Assembly: GCF_056746865.1 (NCBI RefSeq)
Contig: NZ_CM163382.1
Direction: 5' to 3' (one strand)
DNA length: 64,000 bases
A program made the translations under genes and the position numbers. Under the pieces are notes generated by a model. That model ran no database searches, was not told the origin of the DNA, and saw only the letters and a list, made by a program, of their open reading frames with translations. Positions 19,258 through 57,523 of this stretch are shown one piece after another; within the stretch, counting starts at the first letter, position 1; every line of letters begins with the position of its first letter.

Positions 19258-19935
19258 AATGCGCCTATAAGGCTCTCTTACCAGCCGCGCCCTAACAGGC
19301 GCACACGATCTGACATTTGCATCCAACTTCGTTACTTACGGCCCGTAAACGGGCTGCCCGGATAGGGAATCGATAACTGCTCTCCCATTTTATCCTCTTC
19401 AAGCTGGTGCTTTATGTAATCCTGTATCTTCGCCGTGTTCTTACCCACCGTATCGACGTAGTACCCTCTGCACCAGAACTCCCTGTTCCTGTATTTGAAT
19501 TTCAAATCACCAAACTGCTCGTAAAGCATCAGACTGCTTTTCCCTTTCAGATATCCCATAAAGCCGGATACGCTCATTTTGGGCGGGATCTCCACAAGCA
19601 TATGGATATGATCTGCACAGCATTCAGCTTCCAGAATCCGTACACTTTTCCACTCACACAGCTTTCTCAAAATACTGCCTATTGCTCTACGCTTCTCTCT
19701 GTAGAACACCTGTCTTCGGTATTTTGGCGCAAATACTATGTGATATTTACAGTTCCATCGGGTGTGCGCTAAGCTCTTTTCGTTCCCCATTGGGACCCCC
19801 TTTTGATTTCTTGTTTGACACTTGCAGTTGCCAGACCGCAAGGTGTTTTAACAAATCAAAAGGGGTTTTAATAACTGGCTTAAAGCTGAAAGCTTTCCGG
19901 AACCCCCAGCCTAGCTGGGGGTTTTCTGTGCACAA
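19258..19935 (-). mobile_element. IS200-group insertion sequence (IS200/IS605 family); boundaries approximate, about +/-40 bp
   Basis: Contains a 152-aa IS200 TnpA ORF plus upstream hairpins (cccccagcctagctggggg at 19893-19911) typical of IS200 left end; no terminal inverted repeats, as expected for this family. Confidence 0.7.
19332..19790 (-). CDS. tnpA: IS200 transposase TnpA (Y1 HUH single-strand transposase)
   Basis: 152 aa from ATG at 19790 (MGNEKSLAHTRWNCKYHIVFAPKYRR...); HIH motif and C-terminal catalytic Tyr (GYYVDTVG); near-identical to remembered Salmonella IS200 TnpA. Confidence 0.9.
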   Translation of the reverse strand: MGNEKSLAHTRWNCKYHIVFAPKYRRQVFYREKRRAIGSILRKLCEWKSVRILEAECCADHIHMLVEIPPKMSVSGFMGYLKGKSSLMLYEQFGDLKFKYRNREFWCRGYYVDTVGKNTAKIQDYIKHQLEEDKMGEQLSIPYPGSPFTGRK

Positions 19936-49816: not shown

Positions 49817-50977
49817 ATGGAAAGAGTCAGTATTACCGAGCGCCCGGACTGGCGCGAAAAAGCCCACGAATACGGTTTCAATTTTCACACCATGTACGGC
49901 GAACCGTACTGGTGTGAAGATGCTTACTACAAGTTGACCCTCGCCCAGGTTGAAAAGCTGGAAGAAGTCACCGCCGAACTGCACCAGATGTGCCTGAAAG
50001 TGGTTGAAAAAGTGATCGCCAGCGATGAGCTGATGACCAAATTCCGCATTCCAAAACACACCTGGAGTTTTGTGCGCCAGTCATGGCTGACTCACCAGCC
50101 ATCGCTTTATTCGCGTCTTGATCTGGCGTGGGATGGTACTGGCGAACCTAAACTTCTGGAAAATAACGCCGATACGCCAACGTCACTGTATGAAGCCGCA
50201 TTCTTTCAGTGGATCTGGCTGGAAGATCAGCTTAACGCCGGTAACCTGCCGGAAGGCAGCGACCAGTTTAACAGTCTGCAAGAAAAGCTAATCGATCGCT
50301 TTGTCGAGTTGCGTGAACAGTATGGCTTCCAGTTGCTGCATCTCACCTGCTGTCGCGACACGGTGGAAGATCGCGGAACCATTCAGTATTTGCAGGACTG
50401 CGCGACAGAAGCTGAAATCGCTACTGAATTCCTCTACATCGACGATATCGGTTTAGGCGAAAAAGGTCAGTTCACGGATTTACAAGATCAGGTGATTTCT
50501 AACCTGTTCAAGCTGTATCCGTGGGAATTTATGCTGCGTGAGATGTTCTCCACCAAGCTGGAGGATGCAGGCGTACGCTGGCTGGAACCGGCGTGGAAGA
50601 GCATTATCTCCAACAAAGCGCTTCTACCGCTGTTGTGGGAGATGTTCCCGAATCACCCGAACCTGCTGCCCGCTTATTTTGCGGAAGATGATCATCCGCA
50701 AATGGAAAAATATGTGGTTAAACCGATCTTCTCCCGTGAAGGCGCAAACGTGTCGATCATTGAGAACGGCAAAACCATTGAAGCAGCGGAAGGTCCGTAT
50801 GGCGAAGAAGGGATGATTGTTCAGCAATTCCACCCGTTACCGAAATTCGGCGACAGCTATATGCTGATTGGTAGCTGGCTGGTTAACGATCAACCTGCCG
50901 GAATTGGCATTCGTGAAGACCGTGCATTGATCACCCAGGATATGTCTCGGTTTTATCCGCATATTTTTGTTGAGTAA
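49817..50977 (+). CDS. ygiC: ATP-grasp protein homologous to the synthetase domain of glutathionylspermidine synthetase
   Basis: 386 aa; similar to C-terminal half of gss product in same window. Confidence 0.9.
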
Positions 50978-51461
50978 TACTGTTCAATATTGCCCCGTTT
51001 ACCGGGGCAATTTATTATACTTCGCAAATCATCACCCCCATCTATATATAATCAATCACATCCATCACTTTTATTTAACATTAATTCCTAATTTAATATT
51101 AAATCGTCATATGTAAGCGATACTGTAATTAAATTAATCAATAAAATCACTTGGTAACCTATTGTTTTATGAGTTTATTTATATCCAACACCGCATCAAA
51201 AATAGATTTAATAATTAAAAAACAATGTCGCTGGGATCACACTACACAATATTGAATATTGTTATTGATATATTGCCCACCTAGTATCGACCAAAAGAAA
51301 ATATTTGTTACAGAGAAATACAAAAATTCTAAAACCAGTAAAAAATATTCATAACGATTATTATTAATACATTTTAATTCACAAAACAAATTTATTAGCA
51401 CCACCTCAACAGTCGATATTCATCATTATTATATATTTGCGTTATATAAGGAGATATATCC

Positions 51462-53258
51462 ATGTTTGATAAATATAGAAAAACTCTGGTAGCCGGAGCT
51501 GTGGCGATAACTCTGGGTTTGTCAGCACCGGGGGTGATGGCAGCAGGTTTTAAACCCGCACCACCTGCCGGGCAACTGGGTGCAGTCATTGTCGATCCCT
51601 ACGGCAATGCACCACTGACCGCTTTGGTTGACTTAGATAGCCATGTCATTTCTGATGTCAAAGTTACCGTCCATGGGAAGGGCGAAAAAGGCGTAGAAAT
51701 CAGCTATCCCGTGGGTCAGGAATCACTAAAAACTTATGATGGTGTACCGATTTTTGGTCTTTATCAGAAATTTGCTAACAAAGTGACCGTTGAGTGGAAA
51801 GAAAACGGCAAGGTCATGAAAGATGATTATGTGGTGCACACTTCGGCCATCGTCAATAATTACATGGATAACCGCTCTATCTCCGATTTACAACAGACCA
51901 AAGTTATTAAAGTCGCACCGGGTTTTGAAGATCGCCTCTATCTGGTTAATACCCACACCTTTACCGCCCAAGGTTCCGATCTCCACTGGCATGGTGAGAA
52001 AGATAAAAATGCCGGTATCCTTGATGCGGGTCCGGCAACCGGCGCACTACCTTTTGATATCGCGCCCTTTACTTTCATTGTCGATACCGAAGGTGAATAC
52101 CGCTGGTGGCTGGATCAAGACACTTTCTACGATGGTCGTGACCGCGATATCAACAAGCGTGGTTATCTGATGGGTATCCGCGAAACACCACGCGGCACCT
52201 TTACCGCTGTACAAGGTCAGCACTGGTACGAGTTCGACATGATGGGGCAGGTGCTCGAAGATCACAAACTACCGCGCGGATTTGCTGACGCCACTCATGA
52301 GTCCATTGAGACGCCTAATGGCACAGTATTGTTGCGCGTAGGTAAGAGCAATTACCGTCGCGATGACGGCGTACACGTCACCACCATTCGTGACCATATC
52401 CTCGAAGTCGATAAATCTGGTCGCGTTGTCGATGTATGGGATCTGACCAAGATCCTCGATCCGAAACGCGATGCACTGCTCGGCGCGCTGGATGCAGGTG
52501 CAGTTTGCGTTAACGTTGACCTTGCCCATGCAGGACAACAGGCAAAACTGGAACCGGATACACCGTTCGGCGACGCGCTGGGTGTAGGGCCAGGTCGTAA
52601 CTGGGCGCACGTTAACTCAATCGCCTATGACGCAAAAGATGACTCAATCATCCTCTCCTCTCGCCACCAGGGTGTTGTGAAAATTGGTCGTGATAAGCAA
52701 GTGAAATGGATCCTTGCGCCCTCTAAAGGTTGGGAAAAACCGCTGGCCAGCAAGCTGCTGAAACCGGTTGATGCTAACGGTAAGCCAATTACCTGTAACG
52801 AAAATGGCCTGTGCGAAAACTCAGACTTCGACTTTACCTACACCCAGCATACCGCCTGGATTTCCAGCAAAGGAACGCTCACCATTTTTGATAATGGCGA
52901 TGGGCGTCATCTGGAACAACCTGCCTTACCAACCATGAAATACTCCCGCTTTGTGGAATATAAGATTGATGAGAAGAAAGGCACCGTTCAGCAAGTGTGG
53001 GAATACGGTAAAGAACGTGGCTACGATTTCTATAGCCCGATTACCTCCATCATTGAATATCAAGCCGACCGTAACACCATGTTTGGCTTCGGTGGTTCTA
53101 TTCATTTGTTCGATGTCGGGCAGCCAACCGTCGGTAAGTTGAACGAAATCGATTACAAAACCAAAGAAGTGAAAGTGGAAATCGACGTGCTGTCAGATAA
53201 ACCCAATCAGACTCACTATCGTGCACTGTTAGTCCGTCCACAACAGATGTTCAAATAA
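51462..53258 (+). CDS. assT: Periplasmic arylsulfate sulfotransferase (ASST)
   Basis: 598 aa with Sec signal peptide; matches remembered AssT of uropathogenic E. coli. Confidence 0.85.
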   Translation: MFDKYRKTLVAGAVAITLGLSAPGVMAAGFKPAPPAGQLGAVIVDPYGNAPLTALVDLDSHVISDVKVTVHGKGEKGVEISYPVGQESLKTYDGVPIFGLYQKFANKVTVEWKENGKVMKDDYVVHTSAIVNNYMDNRSISDLQQTKVIKVAPGFEDRLYLVNTHTFTAQGSDLHWHGEKDKNAGILDAGPATGALPFDIAPFTFIVDTEGEYRWWLDQDTFYDGRDRDINKRGYLMGIRETPRGTFTAVQGQHWYEFDMMGQVLEDHKLPRGFADATHESIETPNGTVLLRVGKSNYRRDDGVHVTTIRDHILEVDKSGRVVDVWDLTKILDPKRDALLGALDAGAVCVNVDLAHAGQQAKLEPDTPFGDALGVGPGRNWAHVNSIAYDAKDDSIILSSRHQGVVKIGRDKQVKWILAPSKGWEKPLASKLLKPVDANGKPITCNENGLCENSDFDFTYTQHTAWISSKGTLTIFDNGDGRHLEQPALPTMKYSRFVEYKIDEKKGTVQQVWEYGKERGYDFYSPITSIIEYQADRNTMFGFGGSIHLFDVGQPTVGKLNEIDYKTKEVKVEIDVLSDKPNQTHYRALLVRPQQMFK

Positions 53259-53275
53259 TTAAGAAGGGAATAAAA

Positions 53276-53944
53276 ATGTCGAAATTAGGGATCTCATCAC
53301 TATTTAAAACCATACTGCTTACCGCAGCTTTGGCTGTTTCATTTACCGCTTCTGCATTTACCGAAGGCACGGATTACATGGTTCTGGAAAAACCTATTCC
53401 GAATGCCGACAAAACGCTGATTAAGGTATTTAGCTACGCCTGCCCGTTCTGTTACAAGTACGACAAAGCGGTTACCGGTCCGGTATCGGAAAAAGTGAAA
53501 GATATCGTTGCTTTTACTCCATTCCATCTGGAAACAAAAGGTGAATACGGCAAACAAGCAAGCGAAGTCTTTGCGGTCTTGATCAATAAAGATAAAGCAG
53601 CAGGTATTTCATTATTTGATGCTAACTCTCAGTTTAAGAAAGCCAAGTTTGCTTATTACGCGGCTTATCATGACAAAAAAGAACGCTGGTCTGATGGTAA
53701 AGATCCGGCTGCCTTTATCAAAACCGGACTGGACGCCGCAGGTATGAGTCAGGCCGATTTTGAAGCCGCGCTGAAAGAGCCTGCAGTTCAGGAAACGCTG
53801 GAAAAATGGAAAGCCTCTTATGAAGTTGCAAAAATCCAGGGCGTTCCGGCGTATGTCGTCAATGGTAAATACCTGATCTACACCAAGAGTATTAAATCTA
53901 TTGACTCAATGGCAGACCTTATCCGCGAGTTAGCAAGCAAATAA
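53276..53944 (+). CDS. dsbL: Periplasmic thiol:disulfide oxidoreductase, DsbA paralog (CPFC active site)
   Basis: 222 aa; signal peptide; CPFC motif read directly. Confidence 0.85.
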
Positions 53945-53958
53945 CAGGGAAACAGGCT

Positions 53959-54630
53959 ATGGGTATTAAGGGAATGTGGAAAGACCTTCGCACTTCACCG
54001 GTGGACACGCTGGTAAGATGGCAAGAACAACGTTTTTTGTGGTTGTTAATGGCCATTGCGATGGGCGCGTTAATTATCCTGGCGCACTCTTTCTTCCAGA
54101 TCTATCTCTACATGGCACCCTGTGAGCAATGTGTATACATTCGCTACGCCATGTTTGTGATGGTTATTGGAGGATTGGTTGCAGCGATCAACCCAAAGAA
54201 CATCATCCTAAAGCTAATTGGCTGCGTGATGGCATTTTACGGCAGCATTTTGGGACTGAAGTTTTCGCTCAAACTGAACGATATCCACCATGCAGTACAT
54301 AATCCGGATCCCGATTCACTGTTTGGCGTACAGGGTTGCTCTACCGATCCAACTTTTCCCTTTAACCTGCCGCTGGCACAGTGGGCACCAAATTGGTTCA
54401 AGCCTACCGGGGATTGTGGCTATGACGCACCAATCGTTCCTGATGGCGTCACACTGAGCAGCACGCAACAGTGGTTTGTGGAAATGTATCAGCAATCTGA
54501 AGGCTGGTATCTGCTACCACCATGGCATTTTATGAATATGGCTCAGGCTTGTATGCTGGCTTTTGGTATGTGTCTGGTGCTGCTGGTCATTATGAGTGGC
54601 GCATGGGCGCTTAAAATCATCAGAGGCTAA
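53959..54630 (+). CDS. dsbI: Membrane disulfide-bond oxidoreductase, DsbB paralog
   Basis: 223 aa; periplasmic-loop Cys pairs CEQC and C...C; multiple TM helices. Confidence 0.85.
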
Positions 54631-54638
54631 CTCAGCAA

Positions 54639-54675
54639 CACCCGAAGCCAGTCGTTCTGGCTTCGGGTTCTTTTA
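54639..54675. terminator. Bidirectional terminator between dsbI and ygiD
   Basis: acccgaagccagtcgttctggcttcgggt hairpin then tcttttatt. Confidence 0.7.
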
Positions 54676-55464
54676 TTAACCTATCTGCACCGACAGCATA
54701 CTTAAACTGCCCATTTCTATACCATCGACCGGAATGGTAATTGGCTCCTGCCCATCCCACGCACCTAAGACATACAACAACGGCAGATAGTGCTCTGGCG
54801 TTGGATTCGATAACGCGCCACCTTCATGGTCGAGATAATTCACCAGAGGATGCTGCTCTACCGGCCCTTGCCACGTCAGATTCGCTTTCACATACTCATT
54901 AAACGACATCGCCCACGGATACGGTGAACTATCACCGTGCCACTTCACCGTACGCAGGTTATGCACCACGTTACCGCTGGCGACCAACATTATTCCTTCA
55001 TCCCGCAGCGCTGCCAGTTTGCGCCCCATTTCGAAATGCCAGGCGGCAGGTTTGCTACTGTCGATACTCAACTGCACCATCGGGATATCCGCTTGCGGAT
55101 ACATCTTAATCAGCACGCCCCACGAGCCGTGGTCAAAGCCCCAGGCTTCTTTATCCAGCGTCACCGGGACCGGCGCTAACAGCTCAACCAGATGCTGTGC
55201 CAGCGCAGGCGAACCCGGAGCAGGATAATGCGTGTCGTACAGCGCCTGCGGGAAGCCACCAAAGTCATGAATCGTGGGCGGCGTCTCCATCGCGGTCACT
55301 CCTGTTCCACGGGTAAACCAGTGAGCCGAAACCACCACAATCGCTTGCGGGCGTGGCAATGTCATCCCCAACTTCTGCCAGCTGCGGGTATACAAATTAT
55401 CTTCCAGCACGTTCATCGGACTACCGTGACCTAAAAACAATGCTGGCATACGTGTTGAAGACAT
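54676..55464 (-). CDS. ygiD: Extradiol ring-cleavage dioxygenase, 4,5-DOPA dioxygenase-like
   Basis: 262 aa from ATG at 55464 (MSSTRMPALFLGHGSPMN...). Confidence 0.9.
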   Translation of the reverse strand: MSSTRMPALFLGHGSPMNVLEDNLYTRSWQKLGMTLPRPQAIVVVSAHWFTRGTGVTAMETPPTIHDFGGFPQALYDTHYPAPGSPALAQHLVELLAPVPVTLDKEAWGFDHGSWGVLIKMYPQADIPMVQLSIDSSKPAAWHFEMGRKLAALRDEGIMLVASGNVVHNLRTVKWHGDSSPYPWAMSFNEYVKANLTWQGPVEQHPLVNYLDHEGGALSNPTPEHYLPLLYVLGAWDGQEPITIPVDGIEMGSLSMLSVQIG

Positions 55465-55606
55465 GATGATATCCTTAACTAAAGGTGTCATTTTGATATC
55501 CTCACAATACGCTTGTTCGGCGGAGTAAGAACCCGGATAACAATGATGATGATCATCAGTTATTTTGACGATCTGCCTGAAGGTGAAGATTTATAAGGAG
55601 TTGTCG

Positions 55607-56380
55607 ATGTCAGTACCTCTCATTCTGACCATACTGGCGGGGGCAGCCACGTTTATTGGCGCGTTTCTCGGCGTTCTCGGGCAAAAACCCTCGAACCGCT
55701 TACTGGCGTTTTCGCTAGGATTTGCGGCGGGGATCATGTTGCTCATCTCATTAATGGAAATGCTTCCTGCCGCACTAGCAGCTGAAGGAATGTCGCCTGT
55801 GTTGGGTTATGGAATGTTTATCTTCGGTCTGCTTGGCTATTTTGGCCTGGACCGCATGTTGCCACATGCGCATCCGCAGGATTTAATGCAAAAATCGGTG
55901 CAGCCGTTGCCAAAATCGATCAAGCGCACAGCCATTCTGCTCACTCTCGGCATCAGTCTGCATAACTTCCCGGAAGGGATTGCCACCTTTGTCACTGCGA
56001 GCAGCAACCTGGAGCTGGGCTTTGGCATCGCACTGGCCGTTGCGTTACACAATATTCCTGAAGGTCTGGCGGTTGCAGGCCCGGTTTACGCGGCAACGGG
56101 GTCTAAACGCACCGCGATTCTGTGGGCGGGGATTTCTGGACTGGCAGAAATTCTTGGTGGTGTGCTGGCGTGGTTAATCCTCGGTAGCATGATTTCCCCG
56201 GTGGTCATGGCGGCAATCATGGCGGCGGTTGCAGGAATTATGGTGGCGCTCTCGGTTGATGAATTAATGCCGCTCGCCAAAGAGATTGACCCTAATAATA
56301 ACCCCAGCTATGGCGTACTATGTGGAATGTCAGTGATGGGATTCAGTTTAGTGCTGCTACAAACGGCGGGAATTGGTTAA
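55607..56380 (+). CDS. zupT: ZIP-family zinc (divalent metal) transporter
   Basis: 257 aa from ATG at 55607 ([10 protein letters not shown]...). Confidence 0.95.
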
Positions 56381-56437
56381 AAACAACATCAGAAGTTGTC
56401 CAGCGCATGGACAACTTCTGCCAGCTTCACGAAAGCC

Positions 56438-56608
56438 TTATTCTACCTTTTCGGCTGTCTCTTCTCTCGTACTGTTTAAGTATTTGTTCCGCGCTTCAAG
56501 CAGTGCGTCTCTGTCCTGGCGAAACGCCCGACAATAACGTTTCAAATGCAGGAAATAACCCACCACAACCAGAGCAATCAATACAATCCAGTACCAGGCG
56601 ATAAACAT
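56438..56608 (-). CDS. Candidate small single-pass membrane protein, 56 aa from ATG (track ORF starts at upstream TTG)
   Basis: N-terminal hydrophobic helix MFIAWYWIVLIALVVVGYFL then charged tail; aagggtaaaagg precedes ATG; AT-rich upstream region. Confidence 0.45.
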   Translation of the reverse strand: MFIAWYWIVLIALVVVGYFLHLKRYCRAFRQDRDALLEARNKYLNSTREETAEKVE

Positions 56609-56802
56609 CCTTTTACCCTTAATATTTAACAATACTAAACATTTAGCGCATAAATTTCACATATCCTTTTTCGGATATATTCATATGGTCGCATAATAAC
56701 GGAACAATTATATGATTTTGATCATAATGAAAAAGAATGCCTGATATTAATGAAATTTTCTCATAGAAAGAGAAGCGGAATTAACATCTTGCATAGCAGG
56801 GA

Positions 56803-56840
56803 AAAATAAAAACCGAAGCCTGCTACAACTTCGGTTTCTT
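56803..56840 (-). terminator. Rho-independent terminator downstream of ribB
   Basis: aaccgaagcctgctacaacttcggtt hairpin with flanking A/T runs. Confidence 0.65.
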
Positions 56841-56869
56841 GATTAAGGCAGTAAATTAAGCAGCGGTTT

Positions 56870-57523
56870 TCAGCTGGCTTTACGCTCATGTGCCTGACGA
56901 TAAGCCACCAGGTCTTCAATAGTCACGAGCGCCATATTGTGTTTATTGGCAAACTCAATGCACTCTGGTGCACGCGCCATCGTGCCATCGTCATTAGTCA
57001 GCTCACACAGCACACCAGCCGGTTTAAAGCCTGCCAGCGTCATCAGATCAATAGTCGCTTCAGTATGGCCGCCACGCGTCAGTACACCACCAGCCTGAGC
57101 GCGAAGTGGGAAAACGTGGCCCGGGCGATTCAGATCAGAAGGTTTTGCGTCATCGGCAATCGCTGCGCGAACGGTCGTAATACGGTCAGCGGCAGAAACA
57201 CCGGTAGTCACACCTTCAGCCGCTTCAATGGTCACGGTAAAACCGGTGCCATAGGCGCTGGTGTTATTTTCTACCATCATTGGCAGATCAAGTTGTTTAC
57301 GGCGATCTTCAGTAATGCACAGGCAAACAATACCGCTACCGTGGCGAATGGTCAGCGCCATCTGCTCAACGGTCATGGTTTCTGCCGGGAAGATCATATC
57401 GCCTTCGTTTTCACGGTCTTCATCATCAAGCACCATTACACCGCGTCCTTCACGCAGCGCAGCCAGTGCATTTTCAACACGTTCGAAAGGCGTACCAAAA
57501 GAGGAAAGTAGCGTCTGATTCAT
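56870..57523 (-). CDS. ribB: 3,4-dihydroxy-2-butanone 4-phosphate synthase
   Basis: 217 aa. Confidence 0.95.

Follow-up and report, generated by a model that had tools for sequence, protein, structure and literature searches.

The window, that is, the whole 64-kb stretch of DNA analysed here (contig NZ_CM163382.1 of assembly GCF_056746865.1), closely matches Escherichia coli strain 118UI (99.99% identity across 12.5 kb) and carries the genes assT, dsbL and dsbI between ygiC and ygiD. The assT product is a 598-aa aryl-sulfate sulfotransferase, an enzyme that moves sulfate from one phenolic compound to another; some host and drug metabolites are compounds of this type. The gene ygiC ends at 50977 and assT starts at 51462, while ygiD lies on the opposite strand and is convergent with the three genes. 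The features that frame the intergenic region upstream of assT are as follows.

50978-51461, plus strand: the whole ygiC-assT intergenic leader, 484 bp with 27.1% GC
50989-51021, plus strand: ygiC intrinsic terminator, with a 9-bp stem (50989-51011; 6 G-C pairs), a 5-nt loop and a T-rich tail
51462-54630, plus strand: assT (51462-53258), dsbL (53276-53944) and dsbI (53959-54630), separated by gaps of 17 and 14 bp
54640-54668, plus strand: operon terminator, with a 12-bp stem and a T-rich tail, immediately before the ygiD stop codon

The GC content of the leader (25.9% past the terminator) contrasts with 49.9% in ygiC, 49.0% in assT and 50.8% in the window, which places it in the bottom 0.13% of all 484-bp segments of the 64 kb; the lowest value for any such segment (25.4%) belongs to one that starts at 51008, within the leader. 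Of the 50 intergenic regions in the annotation that reach 20 bp (median length 134.5 bp, median GC 46%), the leader is the longest and, one 26-bp gap excepted, the poorest in GC. It also contains 24 A/T runs of at least six bases, and TpA steps occur at 13.6 per 100 bp versus 4.5 per 100 bp in the window. Given these extremes of length and composition within the window, which are far from chance, the original prediction of a strongly AT-rich leader of roughly 480 bp, with many A/T tracts and far richer in AT than the flanking coding DNA, was correct, and its coordinates were exact. RefSeq annotates no feature under the leader in any of the 1508 E. coli genomes that carry it. Elsewhere in the window, an IS200C-family transposase gene (19332-19790; annotated in 118UI) is located between yghA and exbD and is followed by a 414-bp intergenic region.

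The short gaps between the three genes and the hairpin that follows them agree with the published description of assT as tricistronic with dsbL and dsbI (PMC7810732; PMC3526765). The first 45 bp of the leader are occupied by the ygiC terminator, whose stem other Escherichia alleles retain, with differing loops or a different hairpin; since ygiC transcription stops at this hairpin, assT cannot use read-through and needs its own promoter. In K-12 the entire 3.7-kb segment is missing; there, 37 bp with an unrelated hairpin separate the stop codons of ygiC and ygiD.

In one scan of representative genomes, the assT-dsbL-dsbI cluster was present in Escherichia, Pseudocitrobacter, Citrobacter, Salmonella, Intestinirhabdus, Budviciaceae and Edwardsiella, while within E. 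coli it is accessory (1508 of 5426 complete genomes). The gene order is ygiC-leader-assT in Escherichia and Pseudocitrobacter and zupT-yqiD-leader-assT, with yqiD on the minus strand and ribB further downstream, in Salmonella, Citrobacter and Intestinirhabdus; a gene for a LysR-type regulator is divergent from assT in Budviciaceae and Edwardsiella. Despite the differing upstream gene, the 400-650 bp before assT have 25-30% GC in Escherichia, Pseudocitrobacter, Citrobacter and Salmonella, and in Budviciaceae and Edwardsiella the AT-rich block is shorter and located some 200-400 bp ahead of assT, with 30-50% GC in the proximal 100-200 bp. This recurrence next to different upstream genes indicates that the AT-rich leader accompanies the operon and not the location. 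The yqiD-like sequence that adjoins the leader in Pseudocitrobacter suggests movement of the assT unit within a neighbourhood of 6 kb; K-12, compared over window region 49817-57523, has the cluster at neither the ygiC-ygiD nor the yqiD-ribB site. In the window, the yqiD-ribB intergenic region (56609-56869), the counterpart of the Salmonella and Citrobacter assT site, is a second AT-rich one (31% GC), and it holds the GATC-containing palindrome TATGATTTTGATCATA at 56711-56726, which is conserved upstream of yqiD in Salmonella and Citrobacter. In C. amalonaticus (L015, about 4830-4985) and Intestinirhabdus alba (L020, about 4820-4960) only, an insert rich in GC and in hairpins, about 150-190 bp long and resembling REP or MITE elements, interrupts the AT-rich leader just before the Shine-Dalgarno sequence.

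Cross-genus homology of the leader itself is limited to the 250 bp or so nearest assT, and this divides it into two parts.

51013-51208, unstranded: distal AT-rich half, alignable within Escherichia only
51073-51083, unstranded: ATTTAACATTA, unchanged in six Escherichia lineages, against 56-88% identity in the rest of their leaders
51209-51461, plus strand: core regulatory region, homologous in Escherichia, Pseudocitrobacter, Citrobacter and Salmonella

The distal half aligned well with Escherichia sp. MOD1 (z = 14), and no significant homology was found when it was compared with the Salmonella, Citrobacter and Pseudocitrobacter leaders or with the sequence upstream of yqiD (z from -1.0 to +1.1). 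A second motif in it, TC.ATATAT, is likewise invariant in the six Escherichia lineages, and the invariance of ATTTAACATTA and of this motif suggests that the distal half is under constraint. Within E. coli, the leader is highly polymorphic: its three allele classes are 77-84% identical to one another, compared with 96-100% in the flanks. We compared the window with JJ1886, SCPM-O-B-8794 and E. whittamii over 50978-53950 and found that the first 700 bp of assT are 89-91% identical between E. coli alleles, whereas identity is 96-100% in ygiC, in ygiD and towards the 3' end of assT. The sharp shifts in identity near 52170 and 53470 indicate mosaic recombination, and the assT-locus allele of the window is nearest to that of E. 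whittamii (88%).

A footprint alignment of 14 sequences from four genera (mean column identity 62%) revealed gap-free invariant blocks at 51221-27 (AA.AATG), 51235-43 (GATCACA.T), 51259-61 (TTG), 51270-72 (ATA) and 51282-87 (TA..AT). The elements marked out in the core are as follows.

51226-51241, unstranded: CRP-like site TGTCG-N6-TCACA, 8/10 core positions, centred at 51233.5
51259-51264, plus strand: predicted -35 element TTGTTA, its TTG invariant
51265-51274, unstranded: best match to the H-NS template, TTGATATATT, 9/10, inside the predicted promoter spacer
51282-51287, plus strand: predicted -10 element TAGTAT (TACTAT in most relatives), with T1, A2, A5 and T6 invariant
51416-51434, unstranded: LeuO-core-like element ATATTCA-N5-ATTATAT, 11/14 arm positions
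51448-51453, plus strand: Shine-Dalgarno sequence AAGGAG within TATATAAGGAGATATATCC, nearly invariant among genera

The TTG, ATA and TA..AT blocks fit a sigma-70 promoter, TTGTTA-17-TAGTAT, whose 17-bp spacer is kept in all 14 sequences; the predicted transcription start would fall at about 51294-51295. The resulting 5' UTR would be about 168 nt long and is poorly conserved in its middle (51300-51400). This promoter ranked third on the plus strand in a PWM scan, and its score of 8/12 is below the 9/12 consensus cut-off of the tool. Two candidates with higher PWM scores, TTGCCC-17-TATTAT at 50990 and TTGCCC-18-GAAAAT at 51273, were set aside because they are unconserved or lie in the terminator stem. 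A 17-bp perfect palindrome, ACAATATTGAATATTGT (51246-62), was also rejected, since its left arm is unconserved in the B2 allele and in other genera and its right arm is the -35 region. By-eye comparison with consensus sequences for TyrR, ArcA, MarA/SoxS, IHF, FNR and sigma-54 gave nothing convincing.

Upstream of the predicted promoter, both GATCACA (51235-41) and AATG (51224-27) are invariant in the 14 sequences of four genera, and the only GATC of the leader falls within the CRP-like site. The right half of this site is perfect, while the left half is weak and varies among TGTCG, TGTTG, TGCTG and TGCAA across sequences; taken in a single sequence, the match is no better than chance (P about 0.19 with composition-matched shuffles). 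The CRP-like, LeuO-like and H-NS motif matches are each at chance level singly and are raised only by their conservation across genera. The centre of the CRP-like site is 25 nt from the predicted -35 element, the same distance as in lac P1 (read from K-12); its position relative to the predicted start would then be roughly -60.5 or -61.5. The likeness to lac P1 has its limits, as the lac spacer is 18 nt compared with 17 nt in the leader, the left half-site of the leader is poor, and CRP dependence and the start site are predictions in the leader. Conservation and geometry, which carry the weight here, suggest class I activation by cAMP-CRP or a related factor, and we put forward CRP-family control of the assT operon tentatively, as a possibility to which we give somewhat less than an even chance. 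In Budviciaceae and Edwardsiella (L016, L017, L021, L022, L052), a conserved CRP/FNR-like palindrome of another kind, CGTGAT-N4-ATCAAA, is present in the regulator-assT intergenic region about 300-370 bp before assT; it differs from the GATCACA element of the Enterobacteriaceae.

Closer to the gene, E. coli, E. whittamii and three Citrobacter species have the LeuO-like element in the same place, at -46 relative to the ATG. It was compared with the palindromic LeuO core described by Fragel et al. (PMC6698644), which we recovered as ATATTCA-N5-TGAATAT from the cas and leuO regions of K-12; the match is suggestive of a LeuO site but not significant alone (P about 0.20 in a single sequence). The LysR-type genes divergent from assT (L016 3605-4630, L018 3494-4477 and L019 3632-4621, all on the minus strand) also bear on this family of regulators. 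In Limnobaculum, Budvicia, Leminorella and Edwardsiella, the best NCBIfam matches of these divergent regulators are BsrA and LeuO, under the equivalog cut-offs, with LeuO the second-best match (E from 1e-27 to 1e-30, sub-cut-off), and they may exert a dedicated control related to that of LeuO in Salmonella. In S. Typhi, Gallego-Hernandez and colleagues reportedly found in 2012 one LeuO-dependent promoter and two LeuO-independent assT starts in minimal medium. Next to the ATG, AAGGAG is bracketed by an ATAT/ATAT inverted repeat, and the 21-nt block TATATAAGGAGATATATCCATG (51444-51464) is almost invariant across genera; this conservation exceeds the need of a ribosome-binding site, and the block could be a translational control site, e.g., that of an RNA-binding protein.

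With respect to H-NS, the leader contains 8 matches of at least 8/10 to the high-affinity template tCGATAAATT (Lang et al., PMC2094087), i.e., 16.5 per kb compared with 3.3 per kb in the window, a density that is five times the window mean and in the top 3 of 263 tiles. Both this count and the TpA density equal the expectation from base composition (motif shuffle P = 0.19). The AA/TT period with the strongest signal is 10.5 bp (P about 0.06). The leader thus resembles an H-NS substrate because of its composition, and it is by composition that H-NS selects its targets; as in H-NS-silenced promoters, the AT content is well above average over several hundred bp. For the orthologous operon of S. 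Typhi, repression by H-NS and activation by LeuO are reported in PMC4264507, a review from the group behind that work, and the chromosomal assT of the uropathogenic strain CFT073 is silent in standard culture and reported to be up in the urine of infected mice (PMC7810732). The literature searched yielded no H-NS ChIP, LeuO ChIP or transcription start data for the leader in E. coli, and the assT locus has no entry in the supplements examined of one CFT073 H-NS paper. From the composition of the leader and by analogy with the Salmonella orthologue, we infer that filaments of H-NS (and StpA) would silence the operon in E. coli. The original prediction of an H-NS-bound, xenogeneically silenced promoter holds in part: the leader is AT-rich and of the kind that H-NS binds, with an H-NS-repressed orthologue in S. 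Typhi, while the word xenogeneic is doubtful, because the coding GC is near that of the host (assT 49%, dsbL 43%, dsbI 48%), the cluster is widespread and old in Enterobacterales, and AT-richness is confined to the leader. No sign of a recent foreign acquisition with deviant composition was found.

The same compositional result could be read differently, namely that the AT-richness arose by neutral drift around a simple constitutive or weakly regulated promoter near assT, with no silencing by nucleoid proteins. Such a history would account for motif and TpA counts that base composition alone predicts, for the poorly conserved stretch at 51300-51400 and for the rapid divergence of the leader among E. 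coli alleles, but it is hard to reconcile with an AT-rich leader that recurs in several families and three genomic contexts, and the S. Typhi repression data (as reported in PMC4264507) and the silence of the CFT073 gene also count against it; we therefore consider it improbable. A related proposal concerns only the distal half, 51013-51208, which might be a functionless, decayed remnant of the movement of the cluster, for example a degraded yqiD with its promoter or the scar of a mobile element. Pseudocitrobacter, with the Escherichia gene order, does retain yqiD-like sequence between ygiC and assT, the Salmonella and Citrobacter leader is the divergent yqiD-assT region, and the distal half aligns within Escherichia only. 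An initial hint of a decayed yqiD copy or promoter in a MAFFT alignment was, however, not upheld, as local alignments with the yqiD upstream region scored at the level of shuffles and blastn within the window returned nothing; nor were an integration scar or flanking direct repeats found at the island ends, which share a single 9-mer and no other repeats. Together with the two motifs that are invariant in six Escherichia lineages, these results make a remnant origin of the distal half improbable.

The idea that the leader might instead hold the gene of a separate small RNA, form a structured 5' leader of the riboswitch type or code for a small protein is prompted by its unusual length, by six ORFs of 31-64 aa in or overlapping it, and by the 75 nt before the ATG, which are identical in two E. 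coli alleles otherwise 21% different. The original prediction had likewise allowed for an unannotated small RNA. An Rfam scan of 50600-51800 (E up to 10) gave only sub-threshold chance matches, among them the best, the rimP leader (23.9 bits against a gathering score of 47), and MicA (18.3 against 41). Folding of the predicted UTR, of the distal half and of the antisense strand over its full length was no more stable than in shuffled controls (z of +0.41, +0.36 and +0.92), i.e., with no excess structure on either strand. Moreover, the sole terminator in the leader is that of ygiC, all the ORFs are hit by stop codons or frameshifts in the B2-type allele of JJ1886, and the Shine-Dalgarno region together with the LeuO-like element accounts for the conserved 3' block. 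With no Rfam match, excess structure, internal terminator or conserved ORF, readings as a small RNA, a riboswitch or a leader peptide are unsupported and in our judgement very improbable; the region is best read as a regulatory leader and not an RNA gene.

As a regulatory leader, it has a close known counterpart. The S. Typhi assT leader (J Bacteriol 194:2254, as covered in PMC4264507) serves the same operon and is H-NS-repressed and LeuO-activated there. In the Salmonella genome that we compared (S. enterica subsp. arizonae), the assT-proximal 250 bp or so are homologous to those of E. coli (blastn E of 7e-15 and 7e-06), share the invariant CRP-like, -35, -10 and Shine-Dalgarno blocks, and belong to a leader of equally low GC. 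The two differ in setting: in Salmonella, yqiD and assT diverge from the leader, and the locus is flanked by zupT/yqiD and ribB, whereas the E. coli leader is co-directional after ygiC, opens with the ygiC terminator and has a non-homologous distal part of about 230 bp. More broadly, the H-NS-silenced, LeuO-counter-silenced promoters of cas (Pcas), bgl and leuO are like the leader in placing an AT-rich promoter amid sequence that fits the H-NS template, and the leader has an element resembling the LeuO core before a gene that is silent under laboratory conditions; unlike in those systems, the element matches at 11/14 only and is not significant alone, and binding of H-NS and LeuO in E. coli is presumptive.

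Taken together, these observations can be assembled into a model. Transcription would start near 51294 from the sigma-70 promoter at 51259-64/51282-87, further proximal start sites being possible. The transcript would open with a 5' UTR of some 168 nt, AT-rich and unstructured, with a strong and conserved Shine-Dalgarno sequence at its 3' end. Around and downstream of the promoter, the DNA (roughly 440 bp, 26% GC) would serve as the substrate for H-NS (and StpA) filaments, which would keep the operon silent in ordinary culture, and LeuO or particular growth conditions would relieve this silencing, LeuO possibly via the 51416-34 element. We consider it probable that the leader is the transcriptional and translational control region of assT-dsbL-dsbI along the lines of this overall model, including the predicted promoter and H-NS silencing. 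Since it resembles the region already characterised in S. Typhi, it is a real feature but a mostly ordinary one. We infer that the leader extends to E. coli the regulatory scheme characterised in Salmonella and adds conserved motifs to it; it is not a new kind of element. What is new here is the delimitation of a conserved core of about 250 bp, the prediction of a concrete promoter with a CRP-like site, and the high polymorphism of the leader in E. coli.

We also offer a broader hypothesis, speculative and in our view rather unlikely as a whole, that GATCACA / AAAACAATG with its lac-like geometry acts as a carbon-source gate (cAMP-CRP or another CRP/FNR-family factor) on top of H-NS/LeuO silencing across Enterobacterales, and that the exceptional divergence of the leader alleles within E. 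coli (77-84% identity versus 96-100% in the flanks) reflects selection for different expression set-points of this phenol-sulfate-transferring enzyme in gut or urinary niches. The gene assT, found in uropathogenic E. coli and in other extra-intestinal strains, is silent under laboratory culture, and the location of its promoter and the factors that would gate it (H-NS, LeuO and perhaps CRP) provide concrete sites to mutate. Knowledge of this promoter could explain when AssT and its dedicated DsbL/DsbI folding pair get made.
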